In this document: positions 3,700-37,969 of the stretch, one piece after another
Numbering within the stretch: position 1 is the stretch's first letter
Layout: each line of letters opens with the position of its first letter
Assembly: GCA_963558405.1 (NCBI GenBank)
Contig: CAUWGC010000002.1
Coordinates: 40,852-104,851 of the forward strand
Direction: 5' to 3'
DNA length: 64,000 bases
Source: an uncultured Clostridia bacterium
GTDB taxonomy: Bacteria > Bacillota > Clostridia > TANB77 > CAG-508
Program-made: the position numbers and the translations under genes
Notes under the pieces: model-generated
Databases searched by the model: none
The model's input: the letters and a program-made list of their open reading frames with translations, nothing else
Told to the model about the DNA's origin: nothing

Positions 3700-4893
3700 T
3701 TAATCCATTTGTAAATCATCTAAATAAGCTTCTAATCTGTTCATTTGGGATAACTTAACTTGTCCTAATATATGGACATATATGTCTGCTGTTGTACTAT
3801 AACTAGCATGACCTAAAATTTCTTGCAAAACTCTTAAATCTATTCCTGCCTCAATAGATCTTGTTGCAAAAGTATGTCTTAATTCGTGAATTCCTACTTT
3901 TCTAAAATTATGGCTTTCACAAATTTGCTGACAATGTTTTCTTAAATATTCTGAATTTATTGGATTATTACACTTTGTTTTAAATATAAAATCATTTTCG
4001 TTAAATCCATCTCCTAATTCAGCAAGTGTTTCACTTTCATTTATTTTTTCTTCTTTATATTCTTTTAAAATTCTTATTACTTTATCTAGCATAGGAACAA
4101 CTCTATAACTGTTTTCTGTTTTTACATCTGTTACTTTTCGTTCTCTTTTTATCTTATTTAAATCATCATCATAAGTTGTAACTTTTTGAACTCCCCTTCT
4201 TACATAAAGAGCTTTATTTTCAAAATCAATATCTTTCCAAGTAAGTCCACTTAGTTCTCCTGCTCTTAATCCTGTATTTACTAAAACAATATATGCTGTT
4301 CCCATTGTGTGTTCTTTCATAAATCCTTCAAATATCTTTTGTTCCTCTTTAGTCATTATTTTTAGTTCTTTTCTTCTCATAGAAGGTAACTTTAATTTCT
4401 TTGTAGGATTCATTGTCATTAATCTACACATCATTGCATCATCAAAGCACATTTTTAATATGCTATTATAATGTCTTAATGATTTAGGCGATTTTCCTTC
4501 TTTTTGTAATTGACTAATAAATTTTTGTAAATGATATAACTCTATTTTTTGCAACTGCATATTACCTAAATACTCAATTATTTTCTTAGTTTTTTCAACA
4601 TACCCTTGATATGTTCTAGGCGAAATATAAGGCTTTTTATAAATTTTCATCCACTCTTTAATCCATTCTTCGAGTGTAACATTATTATTTTCTATAAAAT
4701 AATTATCATCCTTTTGCCTTCTCATTTCTTGCATTTTTTCTACTACAACTCTTTGAGTTTTCCCATATACAGAAACTTGTTTATTTTTACCATTTACACA
4801 AACTGTTACCCTCCCTTCATAACTATTTCCTCTTTTTCTTATTGTGCCTTCGCCTTTAATTCTTCTTGAAACTTTATCTTTACTCTTACTCAT
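3700..4893 (-). CDS. int: tyrosine site-specific integrase
   Basis: The C-terminal catalytic region reads HELRHTFATRSIEAGIDLRVLQEILGHASYSTTADIYVH. There is an N-terminal SAM-like domain. It sits next to the att core. Confidence 0.9.
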   Translation of the reverse strand: MSKSKDKVSRRIKGEGTIRKRGNSYEGRVTVCVNGKNKQVSVYGKTQRVVVEKMQEMRRQKDDNYFIENNNVTLEEWIKEWMKIYKKPYISPRTYQGYVEKTKKIIEYLGNMQLQKIELYHLQKFISQLQKEGKSPKSLRHYNSILKMCFDDAMMCRLMTMNPTKKLKLPSMRRKELKIMTKEEQKIFEGFMKEHTMGTAYIVLVNTGLRAGELSGLTWKDIDFENKALYVRRGVQKVTTYDDDLNKIKRERKVTDVKTENSYRVVPMLDKVIRILKEYKEEKINESETLAELGDGFNENDFIFKTKCNNPINSEYLRKHCQQICESHNFRKVGIHELRHTFATRSIEAGIDLRVLQEILGHASYSTTADIYVHILGQVKLSQMNRLEAYLDDLQMD

Positions 4894-6854: not shown

Positions 6855-7562
6855 ATGATTGAAGTTATGATTGCAGATGATAATACAGCACTTTGTGAAA
6901 GCTGTTTCAAATTTCTAACAAAAGATAAAGAAATAAAAATTGTTTCGTATGCCTTAAATGGCGAAGAAACACTAGAAAAATACTTTGAATTTAAACCTGA
7001 TGTATTATTATTAGACTTAGATATGCCTATAATAAGTGGCATTGATGTTATTAACACATTACATAGGTTTTCTGAAGAAAGATCAAAATGTAATATAATT
7101 GTTGTTTCAGGAAGTTATGAAAAATTAAATCAATTATATAATACAGCACAAGTTTTTAGAGTAATACCTAAACCTGCTAATTTTGATTACATATTAGAAA
7201 CAATAAAAGAAGTACCTTTAAAAAGCCAAGAAATAAACCAAAAAGAATTAAAAGAAATTCTAATAGAATTAAGATTAAATGTTTTCTCTACTAGAGTAAA
7301 ACACCTAATATCAGCAATAAATGTAGCATATAAACACCCTTATTTATTGAACAATATAAAAGACTTATATTCAGAAGTTGCAAAAGAATATAATATAAGT
7401 CCGAAAACAGTTAAATGGAGTATTAGAACTTCAATAGACACTTTAAATCGTTCTCTGTCTATTGATAATCTTTGCTCCGTTTTTTCTTTAAAATTTAGAC
7501 CTGATACAGTAACACCAAAATATTTTATAACTTTACTTGTAGAATATTTTGAGCAAGAATAA
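6855..7562 (+). CDS. Spo0A-family response regulator (REC domain + Spo0A_C DNA-binding domain)
   Basis: The REC domain has ADDN, the phospho-acceptor in LLLDLDMP and the lysine in IPKP. The C-terminal domain aligns with B. subtilis Spo0A_C: ILIEL..AI, LLNNIKDLYSEVAKEYNISPKTVKWSIRTSI, and PKYFITLL against PTNSEFIAMI. Confidence 0.75.
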   Translation: MIEVMIADDNTALCESCFKFLTKDKEIKIVSYALNGEETLEKYFEFKPDVLLLDLDMPIISGIDVINTLHRFSEERSKCNIIVVSGSYEKLNQLYNTAQVFRVIPKPANFDYILETIKEVPLKSQEINQKELKEILIELRLNVFSTRVKHLISAINVAYKHPYLLNNIKDLYSEVAKEYNISPKTVKWSIRTSIDTLNRSLSIDNLCSVFSLKFRPDTVTPKYFITLLVEYFEQE

Positions 7563-7717
7563 AGAGCAGAAGTTAATTTTTCTGCTCTACCTTTTTTTAA
7601 TACGGATTTTCTAATCAAATAAACTTTTTCAGCATTCTCAATTATTTACAAGTTTTATAGCTACTTTATGAATTTAAAATCAAATAAAGTTTAACATCAT
7701 TACAGTATATAATATTT

Positions 7718-8218
7718 TTAATTACAAAAATCTTCTTTACAATACTCTGTTCCAAATTTACTTGGAGTAAAATACTTAACTTCCCCATTATCATTAACAG
7801 AAAAAATATGCAAGCATAGAACTTCTGCTATTTCTTTAGGTATTCTTCTTAGAGCTACTTGAGCAGATTCCCAATATAATCCAAGTCCATATTTATAAGC
7901 ATGATTGATTCCTGAGATTTTTCCATCATCTTTTGAAACCGAATATCTTTTTACATCCATTCTTGTTATTATTTGTCCTAAGGCATTAAGCCATCCTTCT
8001 TTATTAACCGATTTAGCCGATTTTGAATATGATTTACCTTTACATTCAATAAAAAAATATTCACTATTTCTTTTACCACCAACTAATTTAATATCAACTC
8101 CGTGTTTATGCAAATCGCTTTTTTCTACTTTTTCTTCGTGCCAATTACCATTTGGTTTATTTATCATAAATTTAATAATTTGCTCTACAACAAATTCTTC
8201 GGTAATTTTCTCATTCAT
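7718..8218 (-). CDS. hypothetical protein, possible PD-(D/E)xK nuclease fold
   Basis: This 166-aa ORF has a D...(E)xK-like arrangement (HGVDIKLV ... EYFFIECKGKS). It is the last gene of the mod-res operon. Confidence 0.3.
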   Translation of the reverse strand: MNEKITEEFVVEQIIKFMINKPNGNWHEEKVEKSDLHKHGVDIKLVGGKRNSEYFFIECKGKSYSKSAKSVNKEGWLNALGQIITRMDVKRYSVSKDDGKISGINHAYKYGLGLYWESAQVALRRIPKEIAEVLCLHIFSVNDNGEVKYFTPSKFGTEYCKEDFCN

Positions 8219-8246
8219 ATTTTATCTCCTCAACAAATTTTAAATC

Positions 8247-9623
8247 TTATGAATTTTTGTAATCATCCATATATTTTATATCATTTTCTTTGCAAAATTG
8301 AATTGCATCCTTATAAATCTCATCCTCATTATCCTTATTATCGTATAATTTTCTCGGAACAACTATAGACTTTTCAATTATTGCTTTATATTCTTTTTTA
8401 TTAAATAAATTTGCATCATATTCAGGTAACATATAAAAATCTGTTGCTACTTTATTTATAAACATACTCATCTTCTTAGAATAGTACATTGTAATATATA
8501 ATTCTTGTGTATTTTTCATAGGTAAAAGTTTCATAAGTCTTTTAATTGAAAGTACATCAATATTCATATCCAAAATTATTTTATGAAGTTTGTTTATTTC
8601 TTTTTCTTTTTTTACAAGTTCTTCAGCAGAAACATAATCATCCTCATCGTATTCATCAATATCATCATAATATATATCATATTTGCTTAAATCAGTTGTC
8701 TCAGTAATTTTTTCAATAACTCTTTTTGTTTTCTCTACTGGATATGGTGCATTTTCTCTTGTATAATATTGAGCATCTACTACAGTTGCAATTACTATAT
8801 TATCAGCCATATAAACTACAACTTTATCCCCTATTTTAATGTTTGTATCTTCTGACATATAGCAATATGTTTTTCCGTTATTATATTCATCATATTCAAC
8901 AGTTAAGTAATAATATTGTTCCTGTAAAGAATCAGGTATTTCATAATCTTTTCCTTCAATATCACTTTTAGCATCTTTCTTTTTATTATCTTCTTTTTCA
9001 GGGAATATCTGAATTATATAATTATATATCTCTTTTATTTCTTCCTTGTCAAAACATAAATTATAATAATTGGGAGATAATGCCCCATCCTCAAATAAAT
9101 TGATTCTCAAATCTACTAAATTATTAGTATATGTATAAAACTCTAAATCAGGCTCAATAAAACTTATACTTTCATCTTTTTTTAATTTATCATTTATGAA
9201 TTTTTGTAATAAATTTCTAAGTTCCACTACTTCAAATTCTAATAAAAGTTCGCCTTTGTTATTATAATTAAAATATTTATTTGAAATAGAGATTATAACA
9301 TCACACCACCTATCATAAGGATCGTGTTCAAAATCTTTTTTTCTAATAATCTTTAAATAAAAATCTGTATAATCATCAATTTTTAATCTTAAAAAATTAT
9401 TTTGTTCTTTTTTTGCTATTAAAATTTCCAATCGTGGTAAATATTCTTCTTTATTGTATTTATATATAGTTTCAGGAGAAGGGAGCATATATACATCTCT
9501 TTCTTCTAGCTTTCCTTCTTCGTACATTTTAATAGCTTGTATAAGTTCATCTCTTTCTTTATATAATTTTTGTAATGACCATTTCTTCTTTTCATCTATA
9601 TAAACTTCAGGACTTATCATCAT
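8247..9623 (-). CDS. hypothetical protein (acidic, 458 aa), co-operonic with Type III R-M
   Basis: It is a long, uninterrupted ORF lying 21 bp after the upstream gene. I recognise no motif. Confidence 0.45.
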   Translation of the reverse strand: MMISPEVYIDEKKKWSLQKLYKERDELIQAIKMYEEGKLEERDVYMLPSPETIYKYNKEEYLPRLEILIAKKEQNNFLRLKIDDYTDFYLKIIRKKDFEHDPYDRWCDVIISISNKYFNYNNKGELLLEFEVVELRNLLQKFINDKLKKDESISFIEPDLEFYTYTNNLVDLRINLFEDGALSPNYYNLCFDKEEIKEIYNYIIQIFPEKEDNKKKDAKSDIEGKDYEIPDSLQEQYYYLTVEYDEYNNGKTYCYMSEDTNIKIGDKVVVYMADNIVIATVVDAQYYTRENAPYPVEKTKRVIEKITETTDLSKYDIYYDDIDEYDEDDYVSAEELVKKEKEINKLHKIILDMNIDVLSIKRLMKLLPMKNTQELYITMYYSKKMSMFINKVATDFYMLPEYDANLFNKKEYKAIIEKSIVVPRKLYDNKDNEDEIYKDAIQFCKENDIKYMDDYKNS

Positions 9624-9644
9624 AATAACACCTTCTTTATTATC

Positions 9645-10637
9645 TTATACTCCACCTAATAAATTTAATGCAGTTTGTCCTAGAAGGTTTACCACTTCTG
9701 CATAAAACCATCCGTGTTTATCAAAATGATCTGTTAATTTTTGAAAGAAACCTTTTCTTTTATCAATATGTTTAGAATCCTTCATATTTTCTATTATTTC
9801 TTTAGTTTCCTCTAATAATTCCTGTAATACTTTTTTATCATCTTCATTATCGCATTTTTCTTCAATCTCTTGTTCTATTCTTGAAACTGAATTATCTATA
9901 TTTAAATTAGAATTAACAACATCTCCCATAACGAAATTACTATTAGTAGCAGTTAGATTGTTAATATTATATGTATTTGAACTTAATTTACTTAGTCTTT
10001 CGTTATGTTTTTTTTCTCTTTCAAAATATGTTCTTCCTGCTTGTGTTAATATTGCATTATAAACAGTATCACTTGCCCAACTTACTCTTATTAAACCATT
10101 TGAATCTAAAGTTCCTATTATCCCTCTAATAATATCTTTTTCATCATCATTAACTTTTTTCTCTAGGAACTCCGTTATATTACCATTTGAATTTTCTACT
10201 TTTATTATCTCATTTAATAGATTTTTTTCACTATCTGTTAATTCATCAAACAATTCTTCTCTACACCCTTTCTTTTCAAAATATTGCAAAGCTTCAGGAG
10301 TTAATGTTACAAACCACCCTCCATCAATAAAATTATTATAATTTGAGATATATCCATATAATTTTAAATCTTCCATTGTTTCTTTAATACAAAATCTCAT
10401 ATAATTTGGAAACTCCGACATATTTCCATTAACAGAATAATCTTTTTCTTCATTATACTTATTTAAAAAAACATTTAACATTATTTCTGCATTTTTACTT
10501 AAAATATTCATAGATAATCTCTCCTTATTTTGTTGTATCAATATCTCTTTTTGTTTTTTTCTGACAATTTCATCAACTTTTTTATTTAATTCTTTTTCTA
10601 TTTTTTTAGTATCAATTTTTATTTGAAATTTTGCCAT
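9645..10637 (-). CDS. hypothetical protein (330 aa), co-operonic with Type III R-M
   Basis: It starts 15 bp after the res stop. I recognise no motif. Confidence 0.45.
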   Translation of the reverse strand: MAKFQIKIDTKKIEKELNKKVDEIVRKKQKEILIQQNKERLSMNILSKNAEIMLNVFLNKYNEEKDYSVNGNMSEFPNYMRFCIKETMEDLKLYGYISNYNNFIDGGWFVTLTPEALQYFEKKGCREELFDELTDSEKNLLNEIIKVENSNGNITEFLEKKVNDDEKDIIRGIIGTLDSNGLIRVSWASDTVYNAILTQAGRTYFEREKKHNERLSKLSSNTYNINNLTATNSNFVMGDVVNSNLNIDNSVSRIEQEIEEKCDNEDDKKVLQELLEETKEIIENMKDSKHIDKRKGFFQKLTDHFDKHGWFYAEVVNLLGQTALNLLGGV

Positions 10638-10652
10638 TTATTCATCATCCTT

Positions 10653-12884
10653 TTATAGAACATTATTCAAATTAACCCAGTTTTCATCATTCATATCTTC
10701 AATATATTTTTCTGAAAATAGTATTTTAAGTAGTGGCTTTTCTCCCATAATATGTTCTTCTCTAACAAATCCATATTTCAGGTTATTTTTATTACAGTAT
10801 CTTTTTAAAGCCTCATATTTTAAAGGTGTTGGCAACTCATCAACATTTCTACTACTACCATCTTCATTTTCTCCACCTTTAGTTTCAATTATCCAAATAT
10901 CTTCGTTTTTATCTTGTAATATAAAGTCAGGATAAAAAGTATTATATCTATTGGCATCAGTATATATTATAGAAAAAAATTCTTCAGAACTTTCTCCGTT
11001 TTTATATATCCATTTAATATTATTACTTTCTTCAGCATAATCAATCAATAACTTTTCTGGTAATGATAGTTTTTCATTTGATGGATATAGTTCATATACA
11101 TTTTTCTCTAATATTTTTATATCCTTCTTATATTTTTTTACATATTCTTTTTCCGGCAATATTTTAATAATCTTTTGAACAGGAAATTTAAAATCTGTCT
11201 TTTTTATGTTTTTTTCATTTAATTCAAGTTGTCTTGCCTCGCTTTTTATAGCCTCATATATATCATATTTTAATAATTGTTTGTTATTTATGATAAAAGA
11301 AACAAATTCTAATCTATTCAATTTTAACAAACTAAATTTATTAAACATTTTTTTAGAAAATATCTTTTTTAATACTGCTTTTAATCTCGTTTTATCTATT
11401 ATTCCTGATTTTGCACCAATTTCATATATTGCTAAATTTAATTCTTTTTCCATTGACTTTTCTTTAACATTTATTTTTAAAGTAATATCATCTAGTTTTG
11501 AAATATTATCAGCTGAAACAGTTTGTCCTCTTTTTGTTTTAAAAAGAACATCAGTAGATAAATTATATTCATTGGCTTGTAAATTTATTTTATTTTTATC
11601 AATATTATCAGAAAGATTATATTTTTCTTTTAAATAATAATAAATAACTTCGATATCTTCCTTATTTATTCTAGTTCCCACAAGCTCTTTTTTGCATTCC
11701 TTTGTTAGCTTGAAATCATAGTATTTATCCTTTAAATATATTATTTTTTTTCTAACTGTGCTATCTTCAAAAATACTATTTACTCCATTTACAAAATCGC
11801 TATCATAAGTATATAAATATGAAGTGTTTAGAATATCATTTTTATAATGAATACCATTTATTGATCTTCGTATTCTACCAATAGTCTGAATAGTAAAAAT
11901 ATCATTCATATTTTCTCTTAGCTTAACTAATATTTTTGCTCTAGGGCAATCCCAACCTGTTGCAATAGCTTGTTTCATAATTAGTACTGAACTTTTGGAA
12001 TTATACTCAGAAATATCAGATGTATTTTCGTTTTTTTTGCTTAACCAAATTGCTAATTCTCCATTTTTTACAGTAATACCAAGAGTTTCTAAATATTTCT
12101 GTATATCTACATATAATTCCTCTTGATTATTTGGTATTTGTATTAAAATTAAAGGATTTATATTTAGATTTTCATCTAAAAATGCTTTATGTATTTCTGC
12201 TTGTTTTTTTAAAGCTAAATCAATTAAATAATTAGTTGGATTTTCCACTGTATTTTCATCTTTAACATCTTCATTTATTGCAACCATCTTAGTAATTAAA
12301 CCTTCGGAAATCACATCTTCTTCATTTATTTCAATAAGCAGAGAATCTTCTTTTTCTTTAACTGTAGCTGAAATTCCTATTAAAAATTCAGGATCAAATT
12401 TAGCTTTTAAATCATCTGTTTTAATAGTTTTATTATAATGTTGTTCATCAACAATTATAATAAATTTTAATCCTTCAAGCTTAGCCTCATCAATTCGTTC
12501 AAATAAATTATTTTTTTCAGTTTTTGATATGGCATTATTTCCCTTTTTAGTTACCACTTCCCAATTTATAAAACAAGTATCTCCTGCATCGAATCCGTTT
12601 TGTAATACTTCTTTTATTGTTTTAGTATTTCTATTAGGAATATATTGTTCCATTTTACTTTTGGATTGCTCTTCTAAATCTCCAATACCTGGTGTAAACC
12701 AAATAAATATTGCTTTATCATCAATATTTTCTAAGTATTGATTGATAAAATTAACCATAATAATTGTTTTTCCACTTCCTGTTGGAGATTTAATCAATAT
12801 TTCATTACTTTTATTAGTAGAAGTTGCATCTAATAAATCAAGAATACACTTTTTTTGAAATTCTTTTAATATTATTTCTTTCAT
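10653..12884 (-). CDS. res: Type III restriction enzyme Res subunit (SF2 helicase + C-terminal PD-ExK nuclease)
   Basis: It carries motif I SPTGSGKT, motif II IIIVDEQH, motif VI QTIGRIRR, and a C-terminal nuclease motif DFILQD...IWIIETKG. It directly abuts mod. Confidence 0.75.
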   Translation of the reverse strand: MKEIILKEFQKKCILDLLDATSTNKSNEILIKSPTGSGKTIIMVNFINQYLENIDDKAIFIWFTPGIGDLEEQSKSKMEQYIPNRNTKTIKEVLQNGFDAGDTCFINWEVVTKKGNNAISKTEKNNLFERIDEAKLEGLKFIIIVDEQHYNKTIKTDDLKAKFDPEFLIGISATVKEKEDSLLIEINEEDVISEGLITKMVAINEDVKDENTVENPTNYLIDLALKKQAEIHKAFLDENLNINPLILIQIPNNQEELYVDIQKYLETLGITVKNGELAIWLSKKNENTSDISEYNSKSSVLIMKQAIATGWDCPRAKILVKLRENMNDIFTIQTIGRIRRSINGIHYKNDILNTSYLYTYDSDFVNGVNSIFEDSTVRKKIIYLKDKYYDFKLTKECKKELVGTRINKEDIEVIYYYLKEKYNLSDNIDKNKINLQANEYNLSTDVLFKTKRGQTVSADNISKLDDITLKINVKEKSMEKELNLAIYEIGAKSGIIDKTRLKAVLKKIFSKKMFNKFSLLKLNRLEFVSFIINNKQLLKYDIYEAIKSEARQLELNEKNIKKTDFKFPVQKIIKILPEKEYVKKYKKDIKILEKNVYELYPSNEKLSLPEKLLIDYAEESNNIKWIYKNGESSEEFFSIIYTDANRYNTFYPDFILQDKNEDIWIIETKGGENEDGSSRNVDELPTPLKYEALKRYCNKNNLKYGFVREEHIMGEKPLLKILFSEKYIEDMNDENWVNLNNVL

Positions 12885-14534
12885 TTATAACTCCTCAATT
12901 TCGCTCCTGTAATAATACTCAGGCACATATATTATTTTTATATTATTTTCTATAAAACTATTTTCGACCTCTGAATCAAGTAGTATATCGCTAGAAATAT
13001 ATACTTTACTTATATCAGGTAAACTCCAATTTTTTATATCCGATAGGTCATCTTCTTTTAAAATCAATTTTATTTTATTATTTATTCTAATATTATTTTC
13101 CAAAACAACTAATTCTTTTATATTATTTAAAAGTTCATCACTTAATTCAATATCCTCGTTTTGTAAATGATATCGTTTTACATATTCAGTCGTATAATAT
13201 TTTAAATTTGCTGGTATTCCTATATGATCTCCGTACCCTTTAATTACCTTTTCAATTCGCTTATATGTAATTTCTTCACAAATATTATTCTCATTGTTTG
13301 TACATAAAATAAATTTTCTGTTTTTTCCATCTTCCTTATTTTGTTCTAACACAGCCTGAGCTGTTGTTCCACTTCCTGCAAAAAAATCTAAAACAGTTTC
13401 ACTTTTTGTATGTTCTAATAGAAATCTTATTATTTCAACAGGTTTAGGATTAGGAAAAACATCTTTTTTTTCAAAAATTTCCGTTAAGGTTTTAGTAGCA
13501 TCGCCAGTTTCAGCTAAATCATATAAAATACTTCTACTTTTAATAATTTTATATTCATTTCCTGTATAATAAGTTTTTTCGTAAGGTATCCATCTATTGT
13601 TTTTTTCATCTTTATTCCAATAAATTAAATCATTCTTAATTAAATCTTCCATTCTATTTTTTCCAACTCTCCATCGACCATCTTGTCCATCTGGAGCAAT
13701 GGGAAATAATTCATTATTATCAGGATCTAAAATGGAAAAATACATTGTTGGTCTATCTTCTCTATGAGCTGAACTCCCCCACTTTTCTAATTTTGTAATA
13801 TTAAATTTTCCATTCTCATCTTCATATTTATAACTTTCATCTGTCTTTTGAACTTTTTTATCTATCCAATTAAACTTATCAGTTTTTCTGTATCCGAAAA
13901 TATACTCGTGTTCAGTTACAAAGAACTCATCTGTTTGACCTCCACCATATTTTTTTCTCCAAATCAGAGTTCCAATAAAATTATTTTCTCCAAATATATC
14001 ATCACACAATAATTTTAATTGAGCAAACTCATTTTTATCTATACTAATAAAAATAACTCCATCATTTGATAATAGTTTTCTTGCTACATTTAATCGTTTT
14101 GCCATAAAAGAAATCCATTTTGAATGTCTATATCCATCATCTATTCCAATTCTTTTATCATCATATATAAACTCTTTATTTTCTGTATTATATGGCGGAT
14201 CTATATAGATAAAATCAATTTTACTTTTGTGTGTTTTTTCTAATAGATACAAACTATGTAAATTATCGCCTTCAAGTAAAAAGTTAATATTATTATTTTT
14301 ATCTGAACAAATTTCTTTTTCCTCTATTTCTCTAAAAACAGGAATATTTTTTTTCAGTTCTTCATCTACTTTTTCCTCGTGTTCTTCCCAAATAAGTCCA
14401 TATTTTTTACTTTTAAGCTCTTTTTCAATTTCTGTAAGCTTAGCTTTTATTTCTATATCTGTATTTCGTTCTTTTAAAAATTCTAAAGTTTCAATTAAAC
14501 TATCTCTTTTTTGTTGGGATAAATTTGTACTCAT
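12885..14534 (-). CDS. mod: Type III R-M Mod subunit (beta-class N6-adenine DNA methyltransferase)
   Basis: Motif IV IYIDPPYNT comes before motif I FFAGSGTTAQAV. That order is the beta-class one typical of Type III Mod. Confidence 0.8.
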   Translation of the reverse strand: MSTNLSQQKRDSLIETLEFLKERNTDIEIKAKLTEIEKELKSKKYGLIWEEHEEKVDEELKKNIPVFREIEEKEICSDKNNNINFLLEGDNLHSLYLLEKTHKSKIDFIYIDPPYNTENKEFIYDDKRIGIDDGYRHSKWISFMAKRLNVARKLLSNDGVIFISIDKNEFAQLKLLCDDIFGENNFIGTLIWRKKYGGGQTDEFFVTEHEYIFGYRKTDKFNWIDKKVQKTDESYKYEDENGKFNITKLEKWGSSAHREDRPTMYFSILDPDNNELFPIAPDGQDGRWRVGKNRMEDLIKNDLIYWNKDEKNNRWIPYEKTYYTGNEYKIIKSRSILYDLAETGDATKTLTEIFEKKDVFPNPKPVEIIRFLLEHTKSETVLDFFAGSGTTAQAVLEQNKEDGKNRKFILCTNNENNICEEITYKRIEKVIKGYGDHIGIPANLKYYTTEYVKRYHLQNEDIELSDELLNNIKELVVLENNIRINNKIKLILKEDDLSDIKNWSLPDISKVYISSDILLDSEVENSFIENNIKIIYVPEYYYRSEIEEL

Positions 14535-14653
14535 TAAAATTCCTCCATATTCACATACAAAAATTCTATTTTAATTTATATCATAAAATTACTTTTTTCT
14601 CAATATTTTGACAGAAATTTTGGAAATAATAAATACCAGTATAATTACTGGTA

Positions 14654-15403
14654 CTATATGTTATATTCTTCAGATATTTTATTAAATTTTTCTAATAATT
14701 TATTATATTCTTCTCTTGAAACTCCTGTATCTTCCAAGGGTTTACAAAGTTTTAAATCTTCTTCATCCATTTCATCTTCATTTCTATAATATCTGATTAA
14801 ATCTCCTTCAACAATATCAAATTCATAGTTAGTATAAATTTTATCTTTAAGTTCTATATCTAATTTATTTAATAGAATAATATCAGCATCATTTAAGTAT
14901 TTCATTAAGTCTATAAATTCTTTGTTATGGTATTTTTCGCTCCATTCTTCATAGTTAAACCTATACATATATACTTCTTTTCTTACTATATCATAGTCAT
15001 TATCAATATTAAAAAGTTCCTTAATACCTTTTTTTAAAATCTTTCCATTTTCTTCTGATAACCTATTACTTACCACAGCAAGATTTATTATTAAACATAT
15101 ATGATGATATGTTTCACAATCAAATATATCATCTATAATATAATTGACTATTTCAAAACTAAATTCCTTTTCTAGTTTATCCTTTAATATTTTAAATTCT
15201 TTTCTTCTTTTCTCTATATATTTGATTTTACCTTTAGCACTTTCTACTTCATTTGATGAATAACCTTCAAAAAAGTTTTCCATACTAACTATAACTCCTT
15301 TTATATTTATTAATATATCTGTGCTGTATTTATTATTATAGCAAATTTTATTTGTCGAAATCTGTCGAAACTTGTGCATTTTCATTTTTGTAAATACAGG
15401 CAT
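14654..15403 (-). CDS. hypothetical protein
   Basis: The ORF is probably shorter than listed. An AAGGAG RBS precedes the ATG at about 15292 (MENFFEGY...), which would give about 210 aa. Confidence 0.4.
   Translation of the reverse strand: MPVFTKMKMHKFRQISTNKICYNNKYSTDILINIKGVIVSMENFFEGYSSNEVESAKGKIKYIEKRRKEFKILKDKLEKEFSFEIVNYIIDDIFDCETYHHICLIINLAVVSNRLSEENGKILKKGIKELFNIDNDYDIVRKEVYMYRFNYEEWSEKYHNKEFIDLMKYLNDADIILLNKLDIELKDKIYTNYEFDIVEGDLIRYYRNEDEMDEEDLKLCKPLEDTGVSREEYNKLLEKFNKISEEYNI
15352..15369 (+). promoter_or_regulatory. tandem 0A-box-like repeats TGTCGAAATCTGTCGAA
   Basis: Two exact TGTCGAA copies lie 11 bp apart. They are about 20 bp upstream of a TTGTAA...TATAAC promoter for the XRE gene at 15458. 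Confidence 0.4.
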
Positions 15404-16286: not shown

Positions 16287-19200
16287 CTAACAACCTGTTC
16301 TAGGAAGTTTTTGTGTTGTTTCTATTTCTTTTAAATAAGTTATTGTTTTCCAATCATCTTTATCTTCTACATAAATATCTTTATAGTTGCCTGATGCTTT
16401 TGTATGATTTACAAATATAAATCCATTTGGTAAATTATCTAACATATCACAATATAATCTAGGTTTTTCAACTTCTTTAAAGTCTGATTTTACTGTTCCA
16501 AATCTGAATTGAAAATCTGTTATAAATTCTCCCTCTTTTAATGTTGCATCTGTAAATTTAACTTCATTATTAACTAATGTACTCAAACCATCTTTTAGCA
16601 TTATATAGTCATCACTTAAATTAGTTTTATACCATACAGAATATGTTAAATCTTCATTCCAAGTTCCTGTATAAATTTTATTTGCTCTTAAAGCATTTGT
16701 AGGTAATGAATCACTCCAAGTGAAATTATCTAATGCTATGTTAGATTTATTATGAATATTTGAAAAATCATAATATATGTTATCTTTATTTTGTGTTTCT
16801 ATAAATCCTTTTTTAGTAACTTCAATATCAATATCTACATTATCATCTTCTACTTTTGCATCTACAATTTCTTGATGTTTTATTATTTCTGCCTCAAATA
16901 TTTCATCTGTAAGTATATAGTAATCAGGGCTTTCTACTTCTTTTAAAGTATATTTTCCTTTTAATAATTCTTTTGTTGTAGCCTCTCCGTTTTTATCTGT
17001 AAGTAAAGTATCTACTAAATTATTATTTTCATCATATACTTCAAATTTTGCATTTTCAAGTCTTGAACCTTTTACATCTCCATTGTATTTATTATCTTCT
17101 TTGCTTACCTTTATTACTCTGATATAGCCTTTTATTAGTTCGTTTTCAAAAGTTAAATTTGTAATTTGATCTTGTGTTAATGTTACTGTTTGCGGTATTT
17201 CATTTAACACATAATTTTCTAATGTTTTTGATTCTTGTACTGTGTATTTTTTATCTATTCTTAATCTTTTACTTGTAGCCTCTCCATTTTCATCTGTAAT
17301 TAAAGTATCTACTAAGTTTTTATCTTCATCATATACTTTGAATTCTACACCTTTTAGCTTAACCTCATTATTGTCTTTGTCAACTTTTATTACTTTGATT
17401 TGACCTTTCTTTAGTTCATTTTTAAAAGTTAAATCTGTAATTTGGTTTTGTGTTAATGTTACTATTTGTGGTATTTCATTTAACACATAATTTTCTAATG
17501 TTTTTGATTCTTGTACTGTGTATTTTTTATCTATTCTTAATCTTTTACTTGTAGCCTCTCCATTTTCATCTGTAATTAAAGTATCTACTAAGTTTTTATC
17601 TTCATCATATACTTTGAATTCTACACCTTTTAATTTTACCTCATTATTATCTTGATCAACTTTTATTACTTTGATTTGACCTTTTTTTAATTCATTTGTA
17701 AAAGTAACTGTTTTAATTTGTTCTGCCTCTAACACTACTGTTTGTGTCGTTTCATTTAATACATAATTTTGTAAAGTTTCTTTTTCTCTAATTGTTAATT
17801 TTGAATAATCTCTTATTGCATATCTTGATGTATAAGCTTCTCCGTTTTCATCTGTTGTTATTGTTTCTAAAACTTTTCCGTTTTCATCTAAAACATCAAA
17901 TTTTACTCCTTGTAGTTTTACTTCTTTATTGTCTAAATCAATTTTTATAACTTTTACTTGACCTTTCTTCAATTCATTTTCAATAGTATTTTCTTCAGTT
18001 GTATTCCATTTAACTTCAACAGTTGTATCTTCTGCAAGATTATACCATTTTCCTGTATTTTTTTCGATTAGTTTATAACTTCCTGTTCTTAGGTTTTTTA
18101 TGCTTATTTCTCCATTAACATCAGTTGTATATGTTCCAATTACTCTTTGAAATTCCTCTGAATATAAATCAAATTGTACATTTCCTAGTGCTATTTTGTG
18201 ATTATCTTTATCTACTTTATATATTTTCAAATTTCCTTTTTTATGATCATTTGTTATATTTTGATTAGTAGATTTGTTATACTCTACATTTACATCAAAA
18301 GTAGCTTTATTTATAACATAATTATCATTTGTAGAAATTTCTTTTAATTTGTAATTGCCCTGATATAGTCCACTAAATGTTGCTATACCATTTAAATTTG
18401 TAGTAGCATTTGCGACTACTGTTCCATCTGCTTTTGTTAATTGAAATGTTACACCTGCGATTGGTTTTGATGTTTCACTATCTGTTTTATTTATTTGTAA
18501 TTTTCCTGTATTAGTTTTAATGTTAAGAGTAGCACGACCAACACCATCTCCAAAAGGATCATAAGTTAGTGCATAGTTTTGAGTACCTTCTGTTCTAGTT
18601 TTACCATAAAATACAGGATATGTTTTACATTTACCTTGCACATTGATTATAGCATTTGAAATATCTTGTACCATTTGAGATTTAGGTATTTTTACATACA
18701 TACTTTCATTTCCATTAAATGAATTTGTTTGGATACCGTTTGAATTAGTTATAATAGTTCCTTGTGGTAAGTTAGCAGTAGCTGTAATTGTATAATTTGT
18801 CATCTCTACTGTACTTGAAACATTTATTTTTTGAGTATAGTAATTCCCATCCTCATATAAATTGCCTGAATTAGATAATGTTATATTAGGATCTGAAGGC
18901 ATTTGACTACCATTTCTTCCTATGTTTACCATATTAACTATTGCATTTTTAATAGCATCGCCTCTAGCATCTGCTCCTTGATTTGCTCCTCTAAATCTAG
19001 TTACTGGATCAAAGTTATATAAAATGCAATATACTGCTTGTTTAGTAGCTTGAAAAGCCTCTAAATCATTTGCAACTCCCAATTCACTTGCTGATTTATA
19101 AGGAAATCCATTTATAATTGTTCTCCATATTCTAACATCTCCTAAAACATCAGTAACACTAGCATTTACATCAACAGTATATCCATCTAGCTCCCCAACA

Positions 19201-19454
19201 CCTGGATGTTCTCTATTTACACAATAAGCAGGATATTCTTTTCCACCTTCACTATATGTAGTATAAGTGGTTGTAATATAATACCAAGCATTTTTTGCCT
19301 CATTCCAATATTGTAAATGGTATTCCACATCTCCTCTATTTTGAATATTTGCTGAACTAATCTCTGTTGCAAATACACTAGGGTTTATTGTAGAAAATAA
19401 TGTTAATACTAACATTAGCATTGCTAAAATTCTTTTACTTTTTACTTTTATCAT
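16287..19454 (-). CDS. cell-surface adhesin with repeated Cna B-type (prealbumin-fold) domains and C-terminal LPRTG
   Basis: It has a signal peptide. Four near-identical ~90-aa repeats follow (KKGQIKVIKVDKDNNEVKLKGVEFKVYDEDKNLVDTLITDENGEATSKRL...), matching the Cna-B pattern. The ORF ends ...KLPRTGC directly at the stop. The N-terminal region has YCVNREHPG and QATKQAVY, which could be a thioester-domain Cys/Gln pair. Confidence 0.7.
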   Translation of the reverse strand: MIKVKSKRILAMLMLVLTLFSTINPSVFATEISSANIQNRGDVEYHLQYWNEAKNAWYYITTTYTTYSEGGKEYPAYCVNREHPGVGELDGYTVDVNASVTDVLGDVRIWRTIINGFPYKSASELGVANDLEAFQATKQAVYCILYNFDPVTRFRGANQGADARGDAIKNAIVNMVNIGRNGSQMPSDPNITLSNSGNLYEDGNYYTQKINVSSTVEMTNYTITATANLPQGTIITNSNGIQTNSFNGNESMYVKIPKSQMVQDISNAIINVQGKCKTYPVFYGKTRTEGTQNYALTYDPFGDGVGRATLNIKTNTGKLQINKTDSETSKPIAGVTFQLTKADGTVVANATTNLNGIATFSGLYQGNYKLKEISTNDNYVINKATFDVNVEYNKSTNQNITNDHKKGNLKIYKVDKDNHKIALGNVQFDLYSEEFQRVIGTYTTDVNGEISIKNLRTGSYKLIEKNTGKWYNLAEDTTVEVKWNTTEENTIENELKKGQVKVIKIDLDNKEVKLQGVKFDVLDENGKVLETITTDENGEAYTSRYAIRDYSKLTIREKETLQNYVLNETTQTVVLEAEQIKTVTFTNELKKGQIKVIKVDQDNNEVKLKGVEFKVYDEDKNLVDTLITDENGEATSKRLRIDKKYTVQESKTLENYVLNEIPQIVTLTQNQITDLTFKNELKKGQIKVIKVDKDNNEVKLKGVEFKVYDEDKNLVDTLITDENGEATSKRLRIDKKYTVQESKTLENYVLNEIPQTVTLTQDQITNLTFENELIKGYIRVIKVSKEDNKYNGDVKGSRLENAKFEVYDENNNLVDTLLTDKNGEATTKELLKGKYTLKEVESPDYYILTDEIFEAEIIKHQEIVDAKVEDDNVDIDIEVTKKGFIETQNKDNIYYDFSNIHNKSNIALDNFTWSDSLPTNALRANKIYTGTWNEDLTYSVWYKTNLSDDYIMLKDGLSTLVNNEVKFTDATLKEGEFITDFQFRFGTVKSDFKEVEKPRLYCDMLDNLPNGFIFVNHTKASGNYKDIYVEDKDDWKTITYLKEIETTQKLPRTGC

Positions 19455-36385: not shown

Positions 36386-36999
36386 TAAAATTCCATCTCC
36401 TCTCCATTTTCTATTTGTGCCTCTAATTCTTGAATTTTATTATTTAAAGTTTCAACTTCTCCTTTTAATTTTAAATTTTCTTCTATTAGTAATCCTTTAT
36501 CTATTGCATTAGTTCTTGGATCTTCAAAGTCATTATTTATAGCCTTTATTTTACCCATACTCAAATATTGACTTTCTCCAACTATAATATGATCTGTTAG
36601 TTGAATATTAAATGCTTTTAACATTTTACCTGTAATATTTGTTATATGTTTATCAGGTTTACTTGGCTCTAAATCATTTGAAGGATGATTATGTACTAAT
36701 ATCACTTTTTCACTTGCTGTTATTAAAGCTGTTCTAACAATATATTTACTATCTACATATATTTCATTACATTTACCAACTCCAATTAAACTTATATTTC
36801 TAACATTATTTCTTGAATCTAATCCTATAAATAATAAATGCTCTTGAACAGCATCTTTTATTTCTTGTACTTCTTTTAATTTATATACATCATCTGAACT
36901 TGCTACTTTCATAATATCTCTTTCTTCTACTGGAGGCTTTTTTTGTATTTCTATTTCTAACCCCATACTTTTAAAACTCCATTTCATCTGTTTCTTCAA
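36385..36999 (-). CDS. RadC-like JAB domain protein (DUF2466)
   Basis: The JAB motif reads VILVHNHPSNDLEPSKPDKHITNIT. The ORF ends GEEMEF. Confidence 0.8.
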   Translation of the reverse strand: MKKQMKWSFKSMGLEIEIQKKPPVEERDIMKVASSDDVYKLKEVQEIKDAVQEHLLFIGLDSRNNVRNISLIGVGKCNEIYVDSKYIVRTALITASEKVILVHNHPSNDLEPSKPDKHITNITGKMLKAFNIQLTDHIIVGESQYLSMGKIKAINNDFEDPRTNAIDKGLLIEENLKLKGEVETLNNKIQELEAQIENGEEMEF

Positions 37000-37969
37000 T
37001 TTCTTCTAAGATAATTGTTCTATCTTCTAAATCTTTCTTAATATCTTCAATTTGACTTTCTTCAACAGATTTAAAATCTCCATTTTCGTAATCATCTCCA
37101 ATAATAAAACAGTTTCCTGCAATATAATCATAGTCAAATTGTAGATTAGGTTTTAAATTTGTAATTTTACCTTCTTCATTACATATAAGAAGTAAATCAT
37201 CTTTATAAGGCACAACTTCAATTAGTCCTCCAACTAATTTTTGTTTTGCCTCTAAGGTATCTTCAATTTCCATAACAATAGGATCTTTTCCCACTTCTTT
37301 ATAGACAATTCTCAACTTTTTTTCTTCAGATTCTTCTTCATCGTATCCTAGTTCTTCTTTTATTTCTTCTAAAGAATAATAATGTAAATCAATATCTCCA
37401 CAAGCTCCATTTTCAAGATAACCATTTTCATATAAACTAACATCATCATCCATACCATATTTTTCGTAGTCAAAACAATCAGTAACATAGTATTTTTCTA
37501 ATATTTCATCTAAGCCATTCCATATAGCTTTAGACATTCCATATTTTTCTTCGTTAGAAAGATTTTCTGAATTTTCTTCATAAGGATAAAAAGGTATATT
37601 ATCTTCTTGTAGCATAACATTTATTATTTCTTCTATATCATCTGTACCTTGATATTCAATATAAGCTTCAACAGCCTCCATATTATTTACTTTTTCAGAT
37701 GCCATTGCTAATAAATTAAGCATATTCAAATTACTATATTCACTAACTTTTATTGGTAAATCAGTTTCATAATCATTTATCATATATTCTTCATAACATA
37801 CACCATCTTCAGTGAGTGCTTTTTCAACTTCTTCTTGTGTTAATTGAAGTCCCACTTTTTCTCTTAAAAAAGTATCTAATTCTTTTTTAGAAACAGGAAG
37901 TTCTAACCATTCGCCAACAAGTTCTCCTTCGTTATATTTTCCTAAGTTTCCAATCCAAACATTAAGCAT
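36971..37969 (-). CDS. ardA: ArdA-like anti-restriction protein (double length, acidic C-terminal extension)
   Basis: The N-terminal VWIGNLGKYNEGELVGEWLELP is the ArdA signature. The protein is highly acidic and ends EETDEMEF. Confidence 0.65.
   Translation of the reverse strand: MLNVWIGNLGKYNEGELVGEWLELPVSKKELDTFLREKVGLQLTQEEVEKALTEDGVCYEEYMINDYETDLPIKVSEYSNLNMLNLLAMASEKVNNMEAVEAYIEYQGTDDIEEIINVMLQEDNIPFYPYEENSENLSNEEKYGMSKAIWNGLDEILEKYYVTDCFDYEKYGMDDDVSLYENGYLENGACGDIDLHYYSLEEIKEELGYDEEESEEKKLRIVYKEVGKDPIVMEIEDTLEAKQKLVGGLIEVVPYKDDLLLICNEEGKITNLKPNLQFDYDYIAGNCFIIGDDYENGDFKSVEESQIEDIKKDLEDRTIILEEIEETDEMEF

Follow-up and report, generated by a model that had tools for sequence, protein, structure and literature searches.

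Whether the genes that follow a restriction-modification (R-M) pair form one defence system with it is the question raised by a locus in an uncultured Clostridia bacterium (GenBank assembly GCA_963558405.1). The stretch of DNA analyzed, referred to here as the window, comprises 64,000 nucleotides (nt) of contig CAUWGC010000002.1 (positions 40,852 to 104,851 of the forward strand). At positions 7718–14534 of the window, five open reading frames (ORFs) in the order mod-res-orfC-orfD-orfE are all on the minus strand, with intergenic gaps of 0, 15, 21, and 28 bp. These coordinates, lengths, and gaps had been given in an earlier reading made from the letters alone (hereafter the sequence-only reading) and are exact. 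That reading had also proposed that the block is an expanded defence module carried as cargo of an integrative conjugative element (ICE). The block is compact and operon-like, and it occupies the accessory (cargo) slot of a Tn916-like ICE. However, it is not one conserved five-gene module: when the five window proteins were compared by tblastn with every fetched locus, orfC, orfD, and orfE were found together only in this ICE. On balance, we favour the reading of the block as a mosaic, i.e., a compact defence islet that fills the cargo slot of the ICE and is made up of four units with separate evolutionary histories, probably expressed as one transcript. The five genes are as follows:

12885–14534, minus strand: mod, 549 amino acids (aa), Type III beta-class N6-adenine DNA methyltransferase
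10653–12884, minus strand: res, 743 aa, short Type III-like restriction subunit
9645–10637, minus strand: orfC, 330 aa, member of an uncharacterised family
8247–9623, minus strand: orfD, 458 aa, multidomain protein with a WapI-like immunity domain
7718–8218, minus strand: orfE, 166 aa, small and highly conserved PD-(D/E)xK-like protein

For the first unit, Mod can be assigned unambiguously from its sequence as a Type III methyltransferase. It matches the PADLOC model MTase_III (PDLC03642) over its full length (1e-128), Pfam N6_N4_Mtase (9e-35), and the characterised Type III Mods of EcoP15I (3e-36) and H. pylori (3e-46). The order of its motifs is that of the beta class, with DPPY at residue 112 followed by FAGSG at residue 385. 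No simple-repeat tract that would point to phase variation was found in mod. Res matches Pfam ResIII (2e-18) and, weakly, PADLOC REase_III (3e-13), and it carries the JGI name 'type III restriction enzyme'. Its product combines a superfamily 2 (SF2) helicase (PTGSGKT, DEQH, SAT, QTIGRIRR) with a C-terminal PD..ExK nuclease motif (FYPDFI...IIETKG). The sequence-only reading of the pair as a Type III R-M system is therefore upheld. It had also remarked that Res is short for its type, which is correct in comparison with EcoP15I (~970 aa). This is a trait of the family rather than a truncation, because all six homologues compared are 730–744 aa long and have the helicase and nuclease motifs intact (PTGSGKT, DExH, SAT, QTIGRIRR, and a C-terminal FYPD[FY]I...[WY]I[IL]ETK).

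Full-length Mod-Res homologues (34–38% identity) are present on plasmids of Mammaliicoccus sciuri, S. epidermidis, S. aureus, and E. faecium. One more homologue (locus L061; 46% identity for Mod and 41% for Res) was found in a metagenome, where it is chromosomal and lies between uvrC and a PHP polymerase gene. All four plasmid homologues are two-gene units in which the methyltransferase and helicase genes overlap, and tblastn detected none of orfC, orfD, and orfE at these four loci. None of these orthologous pairs carries the same trio, as the plasmid units are bare and L061 has orfE only. Taken by their sequences, Mod and the 743-aa Res appear to be a complete, self-sufficient two-gene Type III system. 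The pair shares with EcoP15I/EcoP1I-type systems the mod-then-res order, the abutting genes (the res start codon directly follows the mod stop codon), a beta-class N6-adenine Mod homologous to that of EcoP15I, a Res built of an SF2 helicase and a C-terminal PD-(D/E)xK nuclease, and the two-gene organisation of the plasmid homologues. It differs in the length of Res, in the lack of a sequence match between Res and PDB entries, including solved Res structures, and in the three further same-strand genes after res in the window. A megablast search with the 8.5-kb block gave no match in the plasmid and phage collections, and pattern scans for Res retrieved one 1.2-kb metagenome fragment and nothing from IMG/VR.

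The three accessory genes appear to be distributed independently of one another and yet tend to associate with R-M systems. Among them, orfC provides the most distinctive case. The sequence-only reading had recognised no motif in the extra proteins apart from one D...ExK-like arrangement. This remains true of orfC, for which Pfam, NCBIfam, PHROG, and PADLOC (v2.0.0) gave no convincing family. An AlphaFold2 (AF2) model (predicted local distance difference test score 78) contains an N-terminal helix, two winged helices (aa ~48–124 and ~135–202), a disordered linker (aa 221–248), and a helical C-terminal part. The protein can be divided into two modules:

9978–10505, minus strand: tandem winged-helix module of orfC (aa ~45–220), from the AF2 model
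9648–9905, minus strand: helical C-terminal module of orfC (aa 245–330), ~85 aa, from the AF2 model

A Foldseek search with the model retrieved only generic MarR-like and CodY-like winged helices (E ~0.1). By contrast with these structural matches, sequence relatives are more informative about the arrangement of the modules. The family is conserved along its full length, and a profile search that covered 1.84 billion representatives yielded 393 relatives. Among the best 150 of these 393, both modules are present in 64, the C-terminal module alone in 45, and the winged-helix module alone in 41. Ten relatives with only the winged helix-turn-helix (wHTH) module were tested for other domains; five have a TIR_2 or CAP12/Pycsar-type TIR domain, one has a Ser/Thr kinase domain, and one has tetratricopeptide repeats. 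Such relatives match the PADLOC candidates PDC-S66 and PDC-S35, ThsB-like TIR models, and the defence kinase PD-T4-6. Residues 46–216 of orfC align to residues 4–174 of a wHTH-TIR protein with 30% identity (E 6e-24). Because these relatives carry a TIR or kinase domain where orfC has its C-terminal module, orfC may be read as a recognition module joined to a swappable effector, and the earlier suggestion of a sensor/effector add-on is a fair description of this protein. We infer that orfC is a single-protein sensor-effector and a candidate for abortive-infection-type defence that rides in R-M operons.

The consensus of the C-terminal module is ..IDNSI..IE..IEE.....ELL.E.KE..E.I......K....RLS.H..KHGWFY..IV.LLG. 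A role of its C-terminal helix as a transmembrane anchor was considered and rejected, as the hydropathy is 0.85–0.95 (19-residue maximum 0.95) against a threshold of 1.6. In a 57-member alignment, one protein with the C-terminal module also matches many PADLOC E1-E2 (Cap2-like) models (best E 2e-12), and another matches the TIR candidate PDC-S66 (6e-14); these single members suggest that the module combines with several defence-type domains. In gut Clostridia, Bacilli, and Mycoplasmatota, the orfC family amounts to ~400 representative clusters, and it is absent from the phage collection and IMG/VR. In tblastn searches, none of orfC, orfD, and orfE had a match in the plasmid collection, and neither orfC nor orfE had one in the phage collection.

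The genomic neighbourhoods of the orfC family were tallied over 23 species-level genome loci. The family is adjacent to R-M genes in 13 of these, beside other defence genes in five, and in an uninformative context in the remaining five. Of the R-M-adjacent genes, 11 are inside Type I operons, one has an MmeI-type IIG enzyme gene ahead of it, and one is followed by a VRR-NUC/N6_Mtase fusion. In the other five, the neighbouring defence genes are SLFN-type helicases, nSTAND3, YobI with an OLD/Gabija-like protein, DUF3800, and HATPase_c_3. Homologues with 52% identity lie between hsdS and hsdR on a mobilisable element, and one with 66% identity is chromosomal and located just after hsdR. More distant homologues (32–45% identity), including short forms of 200 aa, are embedded in divergent Type I operons, again between hsdS and hsdR, as in Clostridium manihotivorum and Clostridiales oral taxon 876.

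Some of these operons hold further genes. In L011 (4351–16071), where the operon is part of a mobilisable element, the order is hsdM, AbiJ_NTD4, hsdS, an orfC-like gene, hsdR, a YgjP-like metalloprotease gene, two unknown genes (240 and 421 aa), and Abi_2. In the C. manihotivorum CT4 chromosome (L053, 9334–10885) and at the same coordinates in L052, two tandem orfC-family genes lie between hsdS and hsdR. They encode 202 aa (one winged helix and the C-terminal module) and 304 aa (two winged helices and the C-terminal module). Genes for AAA_21 and AAA_2 ATPases and two unknown genes are embedded together with this pair. In a related element family (L033, 1198–6262; L032; L034), a Bro-N protein gene and orfC bracket a variable cassette. 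The cassette consists of a 130-aa WapI-only gene and an MmeI-type IIG enzyme gene in L033, of glutamine amidotransferase and transglutaminase-like protein genes in L032, and of a 186-aa gene in the amidotransferase position and a transglutaminase-like protein gene in L034.

Several defence systems offer a comparison for orfC. PrrC sits in EcoprrI, and TgvAB sits in VPI-2 of V. cholerae. More generally, defence genes inside R-M operons are documented, including the 'guilt-by-embedding' PDC candidates of Payne et al. and TgvAB of V. cholerae (PMC11411939; bioRxiv 10.1101/2024.01.29.577857). The orfC family shares its placement with these genes: across Types I, IIG, and III, its members either sit where PrrC does, with hsdS on one side and hsdR on the other, or close the R-M operon at the 3' end. 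In addition, its TIR-bearing relatives match PDC-S35 and PDC-S66. However, orfC differs from PrrC and RloC in that neither an ABC-type ATPase nor an anticodon nuclease was detected with Pfam, NCBIfam, or PADLOC, and the model consists of wHTH domains and a helical tail. It also differs from TgvAB, PDC-S35, and PDC-S66 in having no GmrSD or TIR domain, and the part that it has in common with the PDC proteins is the N-terminal wHTH only. No PADLOC v2.0.0 model matches orfC, and its putative effector module is undescribed. Thus, orfC may work like proteins of the PrrC/RloC type but belongs to none of those families. With sensor-effector proteins such as ThsB-like TIR proteins, Pycsar/CBASS effectors, and the PD-T4-6 kinase, orfC shares the plan in which a swappable effector comes after a recognition module, as well as homology in the latter (27–30% identity over ~170 aa). 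Its C-terminal part, in contrast, is not a known enzyme but a small helical module whose KHGWFY..LLG tail is conserved.

For orfD, the earlier statement that no motif could be recognised does not stand, as a WapI-like immunity domain is detected above the gathering cutoff:

9018–9407, minus strand: WapI-like immunity domain of orfD (aa 73–202), Pfam PF24716, E 4e-9, 37.2 bits against a gathering cutoff of 27

Homologues of orfD also carry a precomputed WapI-like domain. Outside this domain, the protein has an acidic linker, a middle part that resembles a small barrel, and a C-terminal region without an assigned fold, and a sequence search against the PDB returned nothing meaningful. Fusions to Macro, NUDIX/DUF6508, or Cys-rich CPCC domains occur in some members of this small family (21 hits). 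In each of the five contexts sampled, the gene belongs to the cargo of a mobile element and has an R-M system for a neighbour. The five are the Type III pair of the window; a Type I R-M system with Macro and DUF4268 genes in a sister ICE (L018); a position after a Type I R-M system and Abi_2; a WapI-only gene (130 aa) that directly precedes an MmeI enzyme gene and orfC; and an ICE with a Type I system ~3 kb away. No toxin gene of the WapA, Rhs, or LXG type was present beside orfD in the window or the four other contexts, and a literature search for a link of WapI to R-M systems or ICEs found nothing relevant. Compared with the WapI-like immunity proteins of polymorphic toxin systems (PF24716), orfD thus has the same domain, but this domain sits within a 458-aa multidomain protein, an adjacent cognate toxin gene is lacking, and the relatives are placed at the tail of R-M cassettes on mobile elements. 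One guess is that orfD acts as a binder or decoy for a protein of an invader or competitor.

The last gene, orfE, is predicted to encode a PD-(D/E)xK nuclease-like protein. The D...ExK arrangement that the sequence-only reading had picked out is real: residues D42, E58, and K60, together with Q82, are invariant in an alignment of 20 homologues (D42–K60 are encoded at nt 8039–8095). In the AF2 model (predicted template modelling score 0.76), the secondary structure order is alpha-beta-beta-beta-alpha-beta, with D42 at the start of strand 43–47 and ExK within strand 53–60, i.e., on consecutive strands. Foldseek matches in BFVD are nucleases, MmcB-like repair proteins, and PD-(D/E)XK proteins (best E 3e-4); those in the PDB are weaker (best E 0.02) and dominated by endonuclease folds. 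By sequence, Pfam NOV_C is sub-threshold (0.013), and a profile search of PDB sequences gave nothing meaningful. The protein shares with small stand-alone PD-(D/E)xK nucleases (MmcB-like, Hjc/RecU-like, and NOV_C/Mrr-like cores) a D...ExK placed on the strands where it is canonically found, and its predicted fold may be nuclease-like as well, but it differs in having no significant sequence match to curated families, in its unusual conservation, and in its very varied contexts. The family is large (476 clusters) and unusually conserved (70–89% identity).

R-M-like genes accompany orfE in four of the seven contexts sampled, and housekeeping or transporter genes in the other three. In L061, a homologue with 72% identity follows the homologous Mod-Res pair and an unrelated 264-aa gene. 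This 264-aa gene was tested as a diverged orfC or orfD and was rejected, with no match by module hidden Markov models or phmmer. In L056–L060, orfE lies directly after an unrelated 1124-aa ResIII helicase gene (10-bp gap), next to an Eco57I-type methylase gene in a defence island. In L066, it precedes a 224-aa gene that is followed by N6_Mtase. The contexts without R-M genes are a position after a MacB/FtsX transporter and next to flavodoxin and prfB, a position beside an acyltransferase gene among housekeeping genes, and a position beside an ABC-F ATPase gene in element cargo; the homologues there have 75–82% identity. A functional tie of orfE to ResIII helicases is possible but not required. 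The sequence-only reading had named orthologs that occur without an R-M neighbourhood as evidence against a link; such a pattern was found in part for orfE (three of seven contexts) and was not found for orfC or orfD.

Several additional observations concern orfE. Across seven unrelated contexts (the window, L024, L028, L056, L061, L062, and L066), its DNA is 80–90% identical, and the similarity runs precisely from start codon to stop codon. Because conservation does not reach past the ORF in any of the seven, the idea of a mobile cassette or homing-type element, which would have conserved flanks, was rejected. In every context shown, orfE is co-directional with the gene immediately upstream, with gaps of 10, 20, 26, 28, and 32 bp in five and larger gaps in L024 and L066. 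Downstream of orfE in L056 (6548–12501) are a 383-aa unknown gene, genes for a Metallophos protein and for AAA_21 and RloB, and an HTH gene, and the same island includes a CBASS-like DncV-type nucleotidyltransferase gene with a ThiF/E1 gene.

The cargo slot is bordered by the conjugation/adhesin genes on one side and by the regulator-Xis-Int end of the ICE on the other. Searches with Pfam and other resources identified a tyrosine integrase, an Xis-like HTH protein, a type IV coupling protein (T4CP), a VirB4-like ATPase, ArdA, and a sortase. One flank of the block contains the sortase, a 1055-aa SpaA/TED adhesin, and a small HTH gene. The other contains a Spo0A-like response regulator, a sigma-70 region-4 protein, HTH_16, an Xis-like HTH_17, and the tyrosine integrase. 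Deeper in the element are the VirB4-like ATPase, the T4CP, ParB_N, and an ArdA-DUF3846 anti-restriction gene, and housekeeping genes begin at ~46 kb. The features expected of a Tn916-like ICE are thus present, with the integrase, Xis-like HTH, and sigma/HTH regulators at one end and the T4CP, VirB4-like ATPase, and ArdA in the conjugation module. Two genes of the flank next to orfE are given here with their positions:

3700–4893, minus strand: ICE tyrosine integrase at the element end, Pfam Phage_integrase 4e-29
6855–7562, plus strand: orphan Spo0A-like response regulator, convergent with the block, Pfam Response_reg and Spo0A_C

In the sister ICE L018, the same slot holds different cargo, namely a Type I R-M system that includes an hsdS shufflon, genes for Macro-domain and DUF4268 proteins, and a homologue of orfD (66% identity). 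After these come the response regulator, sigma, Xis, and Int genes that the window has as well. In metagenome assemblies, 125 indexed blocks contain the identical orfC protein, and the ten places shown all have the same five-gene block. The DNA beyond the integrase differs between metagenomes (L001–L010), and because of these variable flanks the ICE is considered to be mobile.

Other features of the element are recorded as side observations. The Spo0A-like response regulator also adjoins the orfD-like gene in L018 (9370–10077) despite the different R-M cargo, and no histidine kinase was noticed among the genes adjacent to it in the window. The ArdA anti-restriction domain is fused to DUF3846 (36971–37969, minus strand), such that the ICE carries an anti-restriction gene together with its own Type III R-M system. 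The SpaA/TED-type surface adhesin (16287–19454, minus strand) has near-identical internal repeats of ~90 aa, and a 963-aa variant in other copies of the ICE suggests that the number of repeats varies.

Regarding transcription, the following features surround the block:

14632–14655, minus strand: terminator-like hairpin at the upstream block boundary, 10-bp stem and weak T tail, directly after the upstream 249-aa ORF
14575–14603, minus strand: putative promoter-like site (TTGAGA, 17 nt, TG-n-TATAAA), recognised by eye within the 119-bp gap that precedes mod
7563–7588, either strand: bidirectional terminator-like hairpin at the downstream block boundary, between orfE and the convergent response-regulator gene

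The promoter-like site fails the rule of the scan tool, which requires T at position 6 of the -10 hexamer. All five genes are preceded by a Shine-Dalgarno-like sequence (for mod, GGAGG 7 nt before the ATG). The sole terminator-like site inside the block is a weak 5-bp stem (9071–9087), the others being at the block ends only. A single transcription unit is plausible because the gaps are tight, no convincing internal terminator is present, hairpins lie at both ends, and a promoter-like site precedes mod. The shared direction in itself is unremarkable, since the minus strand encodes nearly all ORFs over the span 0.4–46 kb. The G+C content of the window is ~25%. In addition, a 21-bp tandem repeat (14661–14714; 2.6 copies, Tandem Repeats Finder score 66) is located at the 3' end of the 249-aa ORF, just before the hairpin preceding mod.

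Three other explanations of the block were weighed against a mosaic of separate units. The simplest would be a single integrated defence system in which all five proteins act together, for which the tight gaps, the lack of a convincing internal terminator, and the identical block in more than 100 metagenome blocks might be cited. However, the metagenome copies represent one near-identical ICE rather than independent conservation, the three accessory families never occur together elsewhere, the slot of L018 is filled by Type I R-M, Macro, DUF4268, and orfD-like genes, and the plasmid Mod-Res homologues are two-gene units. This explanation is thus highly improbable. A narrower version, a three-component Type III variant of Mod, short Res, and orfE, appears quite unlikely as well. 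Here orfE might be, e.g., a second nuclease for double-strand cleavage or a modification-dependent arm, and the slot between res and orfE would take up cargo. The only non-plasmid Mod-Res homologue found, the chromosomal pair of L061, also ends in an orfE homologue, which is more conserved (72%) than its Mod (46%) or Res (41%), and the slot holds orfC and orfD in the window and the unrelated 264-aa gene in L061. The placement of orfE 10 bp after the unrelated ResIII helicase gene in L056–L060 and two genes from N6_Mtase in L066 is in line with such a role. Yet four of the six Mod-Res family members lack orfE, homologues with 75–82% identity occur among housekeeping or transporter genes with no R-M genes nearby, and Res already has its own conserved PD..ExK nuclease.

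Roles outside defence, serving the ICE or the host, are likewise unlikely. Under this explanation, orfC would control the transcription of R-M or cargo genes as a winged-helix regulator, orfD would either protect from interbacterial WapA/LXG-type toxins as an orphan immunity protein or counteract defence, and orfE would be a DNA repair or recombination nuclease. The structural matches of orfC are solely MarR-like and CodY-like wHTH regulators, but the fusion of its wHTH module to TIR and kinase effectors in relatives is not the architecture of a regulator. For orfD, a bona fide immunity-family domain and fusions of relatives to Macro, NUDIX, and CPCC domains typical of toxin-neutralising proteins stand against the finding that none of the five contexts has a neighbouring toxin gene. 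The best structural matches of orfE are annotated as DNA repair or MmcB-like proteins, and the gene also occurs in housekeeping contexts; moreover, the ICE carries ArdA and so invests in establishment functions. On the other hand, none of orfC, orfD, and orfE was found in the phage or plasmid collections searched.

The reading of the block as a mosaic defence islet also has evidence that weighs against it. Because many of the Type I cases belong to one family of mobilisable elements, the independent associations between orfC and R-M systems number ~6, not 13. The C-terminal module of orfC has no recognisable catalytic or membrane signature, and its only family hint is a weak match to AbiTi (PDLC02333) in four of 57 relatives (best E 0.0034); orfC itself does not match this model of a lactococcal AbiT component. 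The samples of contexts are small for both orfD (n=5) and orfE (n=7). Since orfE recurs both after the homologous Mod-Res pair of L061 and after an unrelated ResIII helicase, it may not be fully independent of R-M helicases. Finally, co-transcription is proposed solely from spacing and the absence of terminators.

Under the mosaic islet reading, the division of labour might be as follows. In EcoP15I, Mod hemimethylates an asymmetric site, and the Mod-Res complex cuts unmodified DNA using ATP; by analogy, the Mod and Res of the window would do the same. Cleavage of the Type III kind also depends on two unmethylated sites in inverse orientation. The tandem winged-helix module of orfC may recognise nucleic acid or protein derived from an invader, or a perturbed state of the R-M system. 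A flexible linker would join this sensor to the ~85-aa helical module, which takes the position of the TIR or protein-kinase effectors of relatives, and orfC might thereby serve as an abortive-infection-type backup carried in R-M operons. The recurrent orfD at the 3' end of mobile R-M cassettes may be a binding partner of a toxin or inhibitor, or else a decoy, and orfE would be a small PD-(D/E)xK nuclease-like protein appended as the last gene. The defence activity of orfC, orfD, and orfE and what these proteins would sense are predictions from sequence comparison. A bolder extension, which seems rather doubtful to us, is that the orfC family is a widespread 'guard' of Type I, IIG, and III R-M systems. 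By a PrrC-like logic, its wHTH module would watch the R-M complex or a phage anti-restriction factor, and the triggered ~85-aa effector with the KHGWFY..LLG tail would kill or arrest the cell.

Taken together, the Type III pair is ordinary, and it is already known that additional defence genes can ride in R-M operons or follow them. What appears to be new is the orfC family, undescribed in Pfam, NCBIfam, and PADLOC v2, as a further candidate case of defence genes embedded in R-M operons. Two smaller leads are the recurrent R-M linkage of WapI-like domain proteins and that of the very highly conserved 166-aa PD-(D/E)xK protein. The orfC family is worth following, as it is embedded repeatedly in three types of R-M system and has a sensor module in common with TIR and kinase defence proteins. 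If orfC is active, its effector module would be a new one, and the ICE, which also encodes the anti-restriction protein ArdA, would be a new case of a conjugative element with layered immunity.

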